Of a stretch of DNA of 64,000 bases, positions 33,157 through 42,834 are shown in pieces. The notes beneath the pieces were generated by a model that worked only from the letters and a program-made list of their open reading frames with translations, was not told the DNA's origin and did no database searches. The number at the start of each line of letters is the position of its first letter. Within the stretch, counting starts at the first letter, position 1. Source of the stretch: an uncultured Bdellovibrionales bacterium (GTDB lineage: Bacteria > Patescibacteriota > Minisyncoccia > Moranbacterales > UBA1568); the NCBI GenBank assembly GCA_964580285.1, contig CAZOKB010000005.1, forward strand, positions 221 to 64,220, given 5' to 3'. The translations under genes were made by a program, and so were the position numbers.

Positions 33157-33651
33157 ATGCATCAGGCACTCATTGCTTTTAATAAGAATATCCGCGCTAC
33201 GAAGCAGTTTTCAGACATGCAGGCGGGTGACGTGGTAAAGATTTTCCGTAAGATTAAGGAAGGAAATAAAGAACGTTTGCAGGCTTTTCAGGGCACGATT
33301 ATTGCTCTGCGCGGCGGTCAGAGTTCATCTCCTACTATTACAGTCCGTAAGGTTTCGTTTGGGGTGGGTGTCGAGCTCGTGCTCCCCTTGTATTCTCCGC
33401 AAATTGATCATATCGAATTCGTGAAGCGCACGCGTGCTCGTCGCGCCAAGCTGTACTTCGTGCGTGAGAAGTCGGTAAAGGTGCTCTCCAAGAAGCTTAA
33501 AGAAGTTTCCATGAAGAAGGTAGTGGTGCCTGAAGAGGGGAAGAAAGAAGAAGTAACCCCGGAAGTATTAGAAGAAGCAATTGTTGCTAAAGAAGCCGCT
33601 CAGGCAGCCAAAGAAGCGGAAGGAGTGGCAGCAGAAGAAACGAAGGAATAG
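33157..33651 (+). CDS. rplS: 50S ribosomal protein L19 with a Lys/Glu-rich C-terminal extension
   Basis: The first ~115 aa match the L19 family; roughly 45 extra low-complexity C-terminal residues. Confidence 0.85.
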   Translation: MHQALIAFNKNIRATKQFSDMQAGDVVKIFRKIKEGNKERLQAFQGTIIALRGGQSSSPTITVRKVSFGVGVELVLPLYSPQIDHIEFVKRTRARRAKLYFVREKSVKVLSKKLKEVSMKKVVVPEEGKKEEVTPEVLEEAIVAKEAAQAAKEAEGVAAEETKE

Positions 33652-33666
33652 GGGCTCCTTCATATT

Positions 33667-33714
33667 GCCCAGGTGGCGGAATTCCTGCCTGCCGGCAGGC
33701 AGGGGTATACGCGC
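33667..33714 (+). pseudogene. Duplicated 5' fragment of tRNA-Leu(GAG), interrupted by a perfect 20-bp palindrome
   Basis: gcccaggtggcggaatt + CCTGCCTGCCGGCAGGCAGG + ggtatacgcgc; the two flanks together match the first 28 nt of the tRNA (the adjacent 3 upstream nt also match, giving a 31-bp direct repeat from 33664). Confidence 0.7.
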
Positions 33715-33722
33715 AGCGCGTT

Positions 33723-33959
33723 ATGAATTGGATAGCTTACGCATTAAAAAGCCAAAAAGACGGGACACTGTATATTGGAATGACATCAGATATTGAAAAG
33801 AGACTAAAACAGCATAATACTGGAAAAACTTCTTCCAATAGACATCGTATCCCGTTTGAAATTCTTTATACAAGAGAGTTTCAAACGCGAATCGAAGCAA
33901 GGGAGTGGGAAAAGTATTTAAAGTCTGGTTCCGGAAGAGAGTTTTTAAGGAGTTTATAA
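33723..33959 (+). CDS. Small GIY-YIG nuclease-domain protein
   Basis: 78 aa; contains YIGMTSDIEKRLKQHN; the N-terminal tyrosine signature reads YALKS, not the canonical GIY. Confidence 0.7.
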   Translation: MNWIAYALKSQKDGTLYIGMTSDIEKRLKQHNTGKTSSNRHRIPFEILYTREFQTRIEAREWEKYLKSGSGREFLRSL

Positions 33960-33964
33960 GAATT

Positions 33965-34048
33965 GCCCAGGTGGCGGAATTGGTATACGCGCTAGCTTGA
34001 GGTGCTAGTTCTCGCAAGGGATTGGAGGTTCGAGTCCTCTCCTGGGCA
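33965..34048 (+). tRNA. tRNA-Leu (anticodon GAG), type II with a long variable arm
   Basis: Manual cloverleaf fold: acceptor GCCCAGG/CCTGGGC, anticodon loop TTGAGGT. Confidence 0.8.
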
Positions 34049-34122
34049 CAAAAAGCGGAAAGCTGGCGGCGAGCCGGCTTTCTTCTTTTGGAGACTTCCT
34101 TTACAATAAGACGGTATCAGAA

Positions 34123-34196
34123 GGGCAATTAGCTCAGTTGGTTAGAGCATCTCGTTTACACCGAGAGGGTCAGAGGTTCGAGTCCTCTATTGCCCA
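34123..34196 (+). tRNA. tRNA-Val (anticodon TAC)
   Basis: Cloverleaf fold; anticodon loop TTTACAC; T-loop TTCGAGT. Confidence 0.8.
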
Positions 34197-34340
34197 CAAA
34201 CCTAAGGTTTGCAAGAATCAGTTTCTTTGATATTGTTGACTTTGTGGTTGCAAAAGCCGGAGTAGCTTCTGCCCATGGCGGACCCGCCTCGGGCGGGCAG
34301 TGGTTCCTCGTAGTTTAGATCAAGAGGCATTATCAAATAT

Positions 34341-34412
34341 GCCGGAGTAGCTCAGTGGTAGAGCGAAGGACTGAAAATCCTTGCGTCGGCAGTTCAATTC
34401 TGCCCTCCGGCA
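34341..34412 (+). tRNA. tRNA-Phe (anticodon GAA)
   Basis: Cloverleaf fold; anticodon loop CTGAAAA. Confidence 0.8.
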
Positions 34413-34460
34413 CAGGCGTGAAAAGAAGCAAGAGAAAAGCGTGAGAGATGGAATGGCTTT

Positions 34461-34533
34461 GGGACTGTAGCTCAGCGGTTAGAGCAGGCGGCTCATAACC
34501 GCTTGGTCGATGGTTCGAATCCATCCAGTCCCA
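34461..34533 (+). tRNA. tRNA with CAT anticodon (elongator Met, or Ile2 after lysidinylation by TilS)
   Basis: Cloverleaf fold; G1:C72 pair, so not an initiator tRNA; anticodon loop CTCATAA. Confidence 0.7.
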
Positions 34534-34590
34534 CTAGGGTTGAAAGACATGTATTATTGCTTTCGTTGAGATCTTTCTCAAGAGAGTGCC

Positions 34591-34662
34591 GCGGGTATCG
34601 TATAGCGGCTATTATGTGACCTTGCCAAGGTCAAGATACGGGTTCGACTCCCGTTACCCGCT
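34591..34662 (+). tRNA. tRNA-Gly (anticodon GCC)
   Basis: Acceptor GCGGGTA/TACCCGC; anticodon loop TTGCCAA. Confidence 0.75.
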
Positions 34663-34807
34663 CAGCTAAAAATGAGGCTCTCCAGAGCCTTGTTTTTTAT
34701 TACCCCTAAAGACAGTCGAACTAGGGGTGGACAAAATTTATAAAATATGCTATTATGTATCGTCGTCAAGCTTGGCGACGCGTGTCCTTTTGAAAGGAGT
34801 TATCAAA

Positions 34808-36298: not shown

Positions 36299-36369
36299 GG
36301 TCCGATGGCCGAGCGGTTAGGCACAGGTCTGCAAAACCTTTTACAGCGGTTCAACTCCGCTTCGGACCT
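36299..36369 (+). tRNA. tRNA-Cys (anticodon GCA)
   Basis: Acceptor GGTCCGA/TCGGACC; anticodon loop CTGCAAA; D-arm is irregular; preceded by TTGACT-N17-TACACT (36254-36282). Confidence 0.6.
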
Positions 36370-36381
36370 CAGGTTGTATAT

Positions 36382-36466
36382 GCCGTGGTGGCGGAATTGG
36401 TAGACGCAGAGGACTTAAAATCCTCCGACTGAATAAGTCGTGCGAGTTCGATTCTCGCCCGCGGCA
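36382..36466 (+). tRNA. tRNA-Leu (anticodon TAA), type II
   Basis: Acceptor GCCGTGG/CCGCGGC; anticodon loop CTTAAAA; followed by terminator aaaagaccgg...ccggtcttttt (36469-36501). Confidence 0.8.
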
Positions 36467-36483
36467 CATAAAAAAGACCGGAA

Positions 36484-42757: not shown

Positions 42758-42834
42758 TGGTGGACAATACTGGATTCGAACCAGTGACCTTCACAATGTC
42801 AATGTGACGCTCTAACCAACTGAGCTAATTGTCC
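42758..42834 (-). tRNA. tRNA-Val (anticodon GAC), CCA encoded
   Basis: Minus-strand cloverleaf; anticodon loop TTGACAT; downstream hairpin aaacacc...gggtgtttt at 42727-42757. Confidence 0.8.

Follow-up and report, generated by a model that had tools for sequence, protein, structure and literature searches.

We analysed a 64,000-nt stretch of contig CAZOKB010000005.1 (assembly GCA_964580285.1, positions 221 to 64,220 of the forward strand; hereafter the window), deposited as an uncultured Bdellovibrionales bacterium and assigned by GTDB to the Patescibacteriota lineage Moranbacterales, in which a small GIY-YIG nuclease gene lies just upstream of tRNA-Leu(GAG). The locus at 33664-34049 is probably one copy of a widespread selfish, homing-like element that colonises tRNA genes and uses tRNA sequence as homology arms. 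The element is a ~240-bp nuclease gene inside a partial duplication of its target tRNA gene, and it is a real insertion, since close relatives keep the precise empty site. The family to which it belongs is mobile across loci, tRNAs and phyla. Its signature, the 20-nt palindrome CCTGCCTGCCGGCAGGCAGG (hereafter PAL), is a discrete conserved unit that is also dispersed alone. A first-pass annotation of the window had proposed a minimal mobile, homing-endonuclease-like insertion that kept the tRNA intact and left a 5' pseudo-tRNA stub, and this proposal is borne out by empty sites in relatives and by the same layout elsewhere.

The insertion at tRNA-Leu(GAG) and its empty alleles

Bases -3 to +28 of tRNA-Leu(GAG) are found in two copies in the window, and the upstream copy is split by PAL. 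The long part of the repeat, ATTGCCCAGGTGGCGGAATT, occurs exactly twice in the 64 kb, with no occurrence expected from 100 shuffles, and the short part, the 11-mer GGTATACGCGC, resumes directly after PAL in the upstream copy and stands again in the intact gene (Table 1). PAL is a perfect palindrome, is single-copy in the window even at 3 mismatches (0 expected by chance), and is the sole perfect GC-rich palindrome with at least 10 bp per arm in the 64 kb. The open reading frame (ORF) between the copies encodes 78 aa, matches Pfam GIY-YIG (PF01541) over residues 2-70 with E=2e-16 and is the only GIY-YIG gene of the window, while the downstream tRNA was called by both ARAGORN and Rfam. Repeat, palindrome and ORF all lie where the first-pass annotation had placed them, and the locus is base-for-base identical in two independent JGI metagenome assemblies. 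The end of the short repeat part and the 8-nt spacer behind it together form a near-palindrome, ACGCGCAGCGCGT, a motif that L008 and L009, two sister elements, have kept. At a permissive E-value, Rfam matched only the five tRNAs between 33400 and 34800 and nothing in the stub or PAL.

The loci of relatives were retrieved with rplS, the upstream neighbour encoding ribosomal protein L19, as anchor for both empty and filled alleles. In L218 and L219, whose L19 core is 96% and RluD 66% identical to those of the window and whose tRNA-Leu is identical at every one of its 85 bases, the site is empty. It is also empty in L221, L222 and L225, where an uninterrupted tRNA-Leu(GAG) comes directly after rplS. 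The distance from the rplS stop codon to tRNA-Leu is 16 nt in L218, 6-21 nt in L221 and L222 and 127 nt in L225, and the same Val, Phe, Met and Gly tRNA genes follow downstream. Neither stub nor palindrome nor nuclease gene was found in these five loci, and no hairpin lies between rplS and the tRNA in the empty alleles. The empty site sought in relatives is thus present, and the arrangement, unlike that expected of a fixed neighbour of this tRNA, is not one that all relatives share. Because the 5' flank of the window stub (TAGgggctccttcatatt, followed by GCCCAGG) is homologous to the 5' flank of the intact tRNA in L218 (TAAtctctccttcagagat, followed by GCCCAGG), the stub is the original, displaced 5' end of tRNA-Leu.

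The insertion is not confined to this genome, as more distant Moranbacteria are filled at the same tRNA. A filled site linked to rplS was seen only in L138 (L19 68%) and L009 (L19 core 63%, RluD 42%). L008 is probably filled there as well: it has the same layout of stub, ORF, tRNA-Leu(GAG), Val and Phe on a contig that starts ~140 nt before the ORF, with rplS out of view. The nucleases of L138, L009 and L008 are 72-74% identical to that of the window (L138 and L009 74%, L008 72%). Presence and absence are therefore polymorphic at one defined site with a precise empty allele (window, L138 and L009 versus five empty). Pairwise identity between the window and L009 is 74% for the GIY-YIG protein, 63% for the L19 core and 42% for RluD, and the nearest relative, with its L19 core identity of 96%, is without the element. 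As the nuclease is closer between genomes than L19, these values suggest that the element reached the same tRNA horizontally and did not simply descend with its hosts. Moreover, in all of the window, L008 and L009 the first 17 nt of the stub equal the local tRNA, even at a base that is specific to the lineage (GCCCAGG versus GCCCAGA). Since the stub tracks the local tRNA in this way, stubs are re-formed or homogenised and not left decaying.

These alleles bear on a conservative explanation, according to which the gene is an ordinary housekeeping or repair gene of UPF0213 type that lies by chance at a tRNA cluster, the repeat being a decayed tandem tRNA duplication. Prokaryotic Slx1-like minimal proteins were indeed treated as vertically inherited in a 2006 survey of the GIY-YIG superfamily (PMC1564403), and the arrangement is common to the two relatives in which rplS is visible (L138 and L009) and probably to L008. 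We nevertheless regard this explanation as very improbable: it is contradicted by the precise empty site in the five nearest relatives, by a layout of stub, PAL and ORF that recurs at 8 or more tRNA types in several phyla and in tandem copies, and by a protein that is better conserved between genomes than L19 or RluD.

Table 1. Features of the tRNA-Leu(GAG) locus, in window positions.
Feature	Position	Strand	Basis or remark
rplS (ribosomal protein L19)	33157..33651	+	Pfam Ribosomal_L19, E=6e-32; AhpC, RluD, L19, tRNA cluster synteny in relatives
Net 298-bp insertion (PAL, short repeat part, spacer, ORF, gap, second copy of long repeat part)	33684..33981	+	Against empty alleles L218, L219, L221, L222, L225
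Stub, long part 'a' (3 upstream nt and tRNA-Leu(GAG) nt 1-17)	33664..33683	+	Exact repeat of 33962-33981
PAL, CCTGCCTGCCGGCAGGCAGG	33684..33703	.	D-loop position of stub, between both halves of the upstream repeat copy; family signature
Stub, short part 'b' (tRNA-Leu nt 18-28)	33704..33714	+	Exact 11-nt repeat of 33982-33992
8-nt spacer AGCGCGTT, stub to start codon	33715..33722	+	Read from sequence
78-aa minimal GIY-YIG nuclease gene, Slx1/UPF0213 type	33723..33959	+	PF01541 match; co-directional with tRNA
5-nt gap, stop codon to tRNA	33960..33964	+	Last 3 nt, ATT, are the same 3 nt as ahead of the stub
Intact tRNA-Leu(GAG)	33965..34049	+	ARAGORN; Rfam tRNA 55.5 bits; 85/85 identical to empty allele L218
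Terminator-like hairpin and T-tract after tRNA-Leu	34057..34083	+	Terminator scan; homologous hairpin in L218

The window holds a second tRNA stub, at 34256-34304, which has no ORF and lies ahead of an intact tRNA-Phe (34341-34413). It is composed of tRNA-Phe nt 1-12 (GCCGGAGTAGCT), a 30-nt GC-rich insert containing the hairpin CCCGCC-TCG-GGCGGG, and nt 13-19 (CAGTGGT), with the intact tRNA-Phe 37 nt on. L218, a close relative, has the same stub and L222 lacks it; it may have been left behind by a former element, or may stem from the same process with a different palindrome. The tRNA genes of the window (33965-34663 and 36299-36467) are mostly without an encoded 3' CCA and end in CAC or similar, and among them only tRNA-Val(GAC), at 42758-42834, encodes it. 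Extra tRNA fragments were also seen around the tRNA cluster of the filled relative L009 (2830-3260): a tRNA-Leu 3' piece ~130 nt past the intact gene, a tRNA 3' half after tRNA-Val, and a tRNA-Val 5' stub split by the hairpin CCCGCCCGAACGTACCGTTTGGTACGGGCGGG. In the empty relatives L218 (2745-3498), L221 (2541-3435) and L225 (3038-3450), a large serine recombinase gene (Resolvase/Recombinase) adjoins the end of the tRNA cluster, after tRNA-Gly, a position at which the window has other genes. A separate integrative element may use that tRNA-Gly.

A family of tRNA-nested modules

Both parts of the proposed mobile element recur outside the window: relatives of the ORF lie at other tRNAs in the same layout, and PAL is found far more widely, as described further below. 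Homologues 53-74% identical to the window protein share its layout in unrelated genomic contexts. For example, L003 lies at a tRNA-Leu(CAG) with an NTP-transferase gene on one side and RNase J on the other, and L007 at a tRNA-Leu(CAA) adjoining parA. Loci L012-L016 lie at tRNA-Arg(TCG) in the flavobacterium Mesonia oceanica, of which some genomes have a single unit and another has two in tandem, and L017 lies at an intron-containing, probable tRNA-His in a Berkelbacteria genome. The common architecture is an intact tRNA, the ORF, a short tRNA piece, PAL and a long tRNA piece that ends at the tRNA end, and the ORF is co-directional with the tRNA in every case. Family members are found upstream or downstream of Leu, Arg, Lys, Gly, Asn, Met and Gln tRNAs, and probably of tRNA-His, in hosts that include Patescibacteria, Bacteroidota and one Bdellovibrionales metagenome-assembled genome (MAG).

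A metagenome scan yielded 499 relatives among 600 pattern matches, out of which 80 loci were retained. At about 58 of the 80, a tRNA on the same strand starts between -37 and +33 nt from the stop codon, and these tRNAs are Leu (five anticodons), Arg (four), Lys, Gly and Asn. When the metagenome loci were pooled with the earlier genome loci and the window itself and parsed, 49 non-redundant modules were obtained with the order [tRNA nt 1..p][palindrome][next 5-30 nt of tRNA][0-68 nt][ORF][intact tRNA]. The palindrome is located at tRNA position 9 to 55, mostly in the D-arm, with some cases in the T-loop or where the anticodon stem ends. In ~38 of the 49 modules the stub is a perfect match to the tRNA as far back as nt 1. 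Mirror-image modules, with the order [intact tRNA][ORF][short tRNA piece][palindrome][rest of tRNA to 3' end], are common (L139, L141, L155, L160, L177, L207, L147, L168, L187 and L188), one example being at the tRNA-Gly(TCC) ahead of tufA. Tandem arrays of 2-3 units were seen in L013, L166, L171, L173, L186, L193, L198 and L217. ORF lineages are also faithful to the type of tRNA: the nearest neighbour of an ORF resides at a tRNA of the same amino-acid type in 58 of 63 cases, against a fraction of 0.32 expected by chance. Near-identical ORFs at different tRNAs, which would fix the ends of the cassette, were sought among these loci, and the best pair reached 76% nucleotide identity.

The boundaries of the modules call for a correction to one part of the first description, in which the 31-bp repeat was called a target duplication: it is not a duplication of the kind left by a transposase. 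Members of the family have duplicated between ~17 and 60 nt of the tRNA, in a piece that always reaches a tRNA end, either 5' or 3'; this pattern fits recombination in conserved tRNA sequence better than a staggered cut. A transposon or insertion sequence was rejected on this variable length, the lack of a transposase and the fact that the lone inverted repeat is the internal palindrome. Similarly, an integrase-type tRNA element was rejected, the 298-bp insert encoding the GIY-YIG ORF only and no recombinase.

Some loci depart from the common pattern. In L003, L007, L146, L205 and L212 the acceptor part of the stub is unlike that of the adjacent tRNA, and in L148 and L209 full-length tRNA copies with the palindrome inside lie beside some elements. 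PAL-bearing stubs without an ORF were seen in L021, L032 and L047, and stubs with two palindromes in L171.

The protein family is large. A profile search of 1.84 billion cluster representatives returned 6,047 clusters (50% identity) at E<=1e-10 and 23,453 at E<=1e-3. By comparison, when 50,697 phage and 72,556 plasmid records were searched with the protein by tblastn, each collection produced a single weak match.

Three further observations concern the targets and outliers of the family. Some target tRNAs in Patescibacteria hold group I introns (L196 547-826, L156 1891-2137 and L017 ~2270-2500); Rfam Intron_gpI scored 75 bits in L196 and L156, and these intron-bearing tRNAs were missed by ARAGORN. 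A more distant homologue (30% identity) is located in an insertion inside a 23S rRNA gene (L110 4824-5015). In L077 (3861-4142), PAL and a GIY-YIG domain lie in frame within a 714-aa ORF whose C-terminus resembles a type I restriction specificity subunit.

A minimal nuclease and a possible route through tRNA homology

Y6, G19, H31, R60, K67 and G69 do not vary among 35 homologues, and each of Y17, R27, N32 and E63 is kept in at least 90% of them. These positions match the GIY, YIG, Arg and Glu of the catalytic core and indicate that the nuclease core is under constraint. A C-terminal motif, KSGxGREFLK, is specific to the subfamily and nearly invariant in the same set. Membership of the GIY-YIG superfamily is evident from the PF01541 match together with the conserved motif residues. 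In a PDB profile search, the best solved matches were the UPF0213 proteins EF2693 (1YWL) and BH0048 (1ZG2), at E=4e-10, followed by SLX1 (3e-7 to 2e-5), with I-TevI distant at E=5e-3. With these closest matches and 78 aa that leave no room for an extra domain, the protein is, judged by its sequence, a bare minimal catalytic domain of the Slx1/UPF0213 branch. No NCBIfam model reached its cut-off for the window protein; grpIintron_endo scored 19.6 bits against a cut-off of 56, and PHROGs homing-endonuclease families match weakly. The homing-endonuclease label of the first-pass annotation was therefore right as to the GIY-YIG nuclease domain and not as to the type: a classical GIY-YIG homing endonuclease such as I-TevI or Seg was rejected, as the protein has no C-terminal DNA-binding domain.

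The closest functional parallel is SegB of phages T4 and T6, a free-standing GIY-YIG enzyme whose gene belongs to the phage tRNA cluster. SegB cleaves inside tRNA genes; it causes the tRNA region to be inherited preferentially, and segB together with tRNA to be amplified in tandem by a process that depends on recombination (PMC2330249; PMC13096335). The present family resembles it in having a GIY-YIG gene among tRNA genes, with tandem arrays and presence/absence polymorphism, and the element would function like a free-standing, Seg-type intronless homing element. However, Seg proteins exceed 200 aa and carry a DNA-binding domain, the present family is chromosomal and essentially absent from the phage collection, and nesting in a tRNA gene with a stub and a conserved palindrome has not been described for Seg genes. 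In searches of the openly accessible full-text literature we found no published description of this module, and a search with the palindrome string itself gave no papers.

Other systems share single traits. UPF0213/Slx1-like proteins have the same minimal domain with conserved catalytic Tyr, Arg and Glu, but the C-terminal KSGxGREFLK is distinct, and while UPF0213 is treated as vertically inherited, this subfamily behaves as mobile. Phages and integrative and conjugative elements (ICEs) that target tRNA genes likewise regenerate their target and are flanked by a direct tRNA repeat; here, in contrast, no integrase or recombinase is present, the insert measures just 298 bp, the repeated tRNA segment is usually the 5' one and one copy is always split by the palindrome. 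Free-standing GIY-YIG genes of fungal mitochondria (Allomyces atp6) reportedly insert with a replacement copy of part of the host gene, so that the host gene is said to remain functional through the duplicate segment while the displaced fragment persists as a pseudogene piece. That case is said to concern the end of a protein-coding gene and a divergent replacement, whereas the present element targets a tRNA and is flanked by identical copies; we know of no conserved palindrome signature in the fungal mitochondrial system.

How such an element might live and spread can be outlined as follows. No promoter-like site was found ahead of the ORF in the window, and a terminator-like hairpin was seen solely behind tRNA-Leu. 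These features make it probable that the ORF shares a transcript with rplS and the tRNA, and the hairpin is likely where the transcript that carries stub, ORF and tRNA ends. The ORF transcript would then be freed by tRNA processing, and an insertion that is co-transcribed and released in this way would be nearly cost-free to the host. The element would spread by recombination in which the conserved tRNA supplies two portable homology arms, namely the stub and, at the opposite end, the intact tRNA. Such exchanges would be promoted by nuclease-made breaks or nicks, a form of intronless homing, and offset repair could give rise to the tandem arrays. The use of tRNA homology arms would account for ends at tRNA boundaries, for the fidelity of ORF lineages to tRNA types and for the identity of stubs with the local tRNA. 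The role of PAL is more speculative: it may be a site or structure (a cruciform or hairpin) recognised by a structure-specific nuclease, and its interruption of the direct repeat may also protect the element from being deleted. SLX1 is structure-specific, acting on branched DNA and stem-loops, and such a specificity would suit recognition of a cruciform or hairpin.

Several points weigh against homing through tRNA homology. The absence of the element from the nearest relatives could reflect repeated precise loss via the direct repeat, not gain. The lack of a DNA-binding domain in a 78-aa protein makes sequence-specific homing cleavage doubtful, and we know of no biochemical activity for this GIY-YIG subfamily. 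Since the intact tRNA beside the ORF equals the tRNA of the empty allele, a nuclease that cuts the tRNA would not spare the locus that encodes it, and the sequence gives no sign of classical homing immunity. The near-absence from phage and plasmid collections leaves the spread without a known vector. Finally, homology-driven spread leaves unexplained the first formation of a module at a new tRNA type, the foreign acceptor parts in the five exceptional stubs, and the arrival of solo PAL in unrelated sequence without target duplication.

A different route would be a circle of ~300 bp consisting of long tRNA part, PAL, short tRNA part and ORF, which is excised and re-integrated by Campbell-type recombination between its tRNA fragment and a chromosomal tRNA, carried out by host recombination. 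It would be akin to integrative elements whose attP overlaps a tRNA gene, with host recombination in place of an integrase. A crossover in the long arm would yield exactly the observed structure for both 5' and 3' types, head-to-tail tandem arrays are reproduced, and excision through the repeat of the long arm would yield the observed precise empty site. Yet no circular junction reads and no integrase were seen, the long arm is often just 9-23 bp and so short for RecA-dependent recombination, each tRNA type would need a new circle, and the conserved palindrome and the nuclease are left without a role. We consider this route rather unlikely, and continue to favour homing through tRNA homology.

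If that reading is true, a large subfamily of minimal GIY-YIG proteins, comprising thousands of 50%-identity clusters, is selfish and specialised on tRNA genes. To our knowledge, bacterial minimal GIY-YIG proteins (UPF0213/Slx1-like) have no assigned role and are assumed to be inherited repair factors. The element would also illustrate a harmless entry into an essential, highly conserved and highly expressed gene, by partial duplication of the target and probable expression from the tRNA operon. For annotation, tRNA stubs, read-through ORF calls and 7-residue 'LPAGRQ' insertions in conserved proteins of Patescibacteria and Bacteroidota become recognisable as products of the system.

PAL as a dispersed unit

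The first-pass annotation had noted that the palindrome interrupts one copy of the repeat. This is what is seen, but PAL is not incidental to the locus: it is the signature of the family, identical across phyla and separately dispersed. In a scan of species-representative genomes (596 Gb), the exact 20-mer turned up in at least 120 species genomes, against a chance expectation of ~0.5. Among the matches listed, to which the following statements on hosts, neighbours and flanks refer, the hosts belong to Patescibacteria, Bacteroidota, Omnitrophota, Planctomycetota, Nitrospirota, Chloroflexi and uncultured proteobacterial lineages, with Winogradskyella, Flagellimonas, Longitalea and Flavivirga as cultured Bacteroidota. 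The nuclease gene lies beside PAL at ~4 of 120 listed PAL loci, the remainder being mostly solo, while most nuclease-gene loci carry PAL or a PAL variant and identical PAL is found in stubs of related modules from other phyla. GIY-YIG is the only protein family that recurs beside PAL; a second family near solo copies was sought and not found. PAL flanks showed no conservation apart from a preference for T at the first base. An uninterrupted copy of the flanks within the same locus was found for 25 of 125 listed PAL sites, and in genuine repeat pairs (e.g. L036, L066 and L126) PAL is a clean 20-bp insertion without target duplication. When hairpins with stems of 5 bp or more are counted, 32% of solo PAL copies and 15% of control positions lie in the loop of a flanking hairpin (Mann-Whitney p=0.006), a preference that is only ~2-fold and therefore not the rule.

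PAL also enters coding sequence. Out of 125 listed copies, 15 lie within long ORFs that are open on either side, and six checked ORFs read it in one phase, L-P-A-G-R-Q (L030 5955, L121 3773, L038 2815, L060 2000, L088 5886 and L091 4279). The Pfam match spans PAL in FtsK, GatB and a sugar dehydratase of GDP-mannose/dTDP-glucose type. As 20 nt would break the reading frame, an insertion into coding sequence must measure 21 nt or be compensated. We rejected a sequencing or assembly artefact, since PAL is found in isolate genomes and in MAGs from many projects, in decayed variants, and in frame inside Pfam domains. Likewise, PAL does not represent the abutted ends of a transposon carrying the ORF, as no half-palindrome is present beyond the far side of the ORF.

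Could PAL simply be a terminator of rplS, or an RNA-stabilising hairpin unrelated to the duplication? It lies 33 nt past the rplS stop codon, a strong hairpin is predicted, the fold of the region has a z-score of -2, and in both module types PAL stands at the tRNA-distal end of the putative ORF transcript. No T-tract follows it, however, and the terminator scan does not call it. The empty alleles, as seen above, have no hairpin at that position, and the exact sequence, not mere structure, recurs across phyla, coding regions included. PAL variants in older stubs are moreover not compensatory, and the copied feature therefore appears to be the sequence and not an RNA structure. A terminator, which the first-pass annotation had named among the observations that would undo its proposal, is accordingly a highly improbable explanation.

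The wide dispersal of PAL raises a further possibility, which may rival or complement homing through tRNA homology: PAL itself would be the mobile unit, and the GIY-YIG protein its trans-acting mobiliser. The nuclease gene would then be a resident 'master', the tRNA stubs by-products of nuclease-induced breaks in tRNA genes repaired with local duplication, and PAL would accumulate in nearby non-essential, hairpin-forming DNA. Such a relation resembles that between REPs and RAYTs, in which many solo palindromic units accompany few copies of one associated protein gene, and in-frame copies in essential protein genes recall Rickettsia palindromic elements (RPEs). The dispersal of PAL and its single recurrent neighbour are suggestive of such a relation. 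PAL differs from these systems in being 20 bp long, perfect and identical across phyla, whereas REPs are lineage-specific, and its associated protein is a GIY-YIG nuclease and not an HUH/Y1 transposase as is RAYT.

Several of the observations above fit a mobile PAL. It far outnumbers the nuclease gene, its solo copies are clean insertions between unconserved flanks, it stands in frame in FtsK, GatB and the sugar dehydratase, and GIY-YIG is its sole recurrent neighbour. The stubs without an ORF and those with two palindromes are in line with it, and a canonical sequence identical across phyla, with local variants decaying uncompensated, is what would be expected of copies from active masters. 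On the other side, no strand-transfer chemistry is known for GIY-YIG nucleases and no known mechanism pastes a 20-bp palindrome; the window holds one PAL and zero solo copies, and the polymorphism of empty and filled ORF sites is not explained by this model alone. We therefore put forward only tentatively that PAL is a 'nano' mobile element, the smallest known, driven by a bare 78-aa Slx1-type GIY-YIG nuclease. Such a unit may enter hairpin-prone DNA, copies of tRNA genes and, in frame, essential genes, all without target duplication. If true, this would be a form of DNA mobility that needs no transposase, recombinase or reverse transcriptase, and it would provide a function for part of the bacterial UPF0213/Slx1-like family. 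A 20-bp sequence shared across phyla in any case offers a tractable system for testing if so small a palindrome can be spread by a structure-specific nuclease.

PAL is not the only recurrent unit of its kind. A second 20-mer, TCTACCTGTCGGTAGACAGG, with the form TCTACCTG(T/G)CGGTAGACAGG and five transitions from PAL, was found beside PAL in several tRNA stubs (L003 2425-2444, L009 2431-2450, L143 1435-1454, L171 ~1046-1066 and, in reverse, L156 1224-1243), which suggests a small family of related palindromic units.

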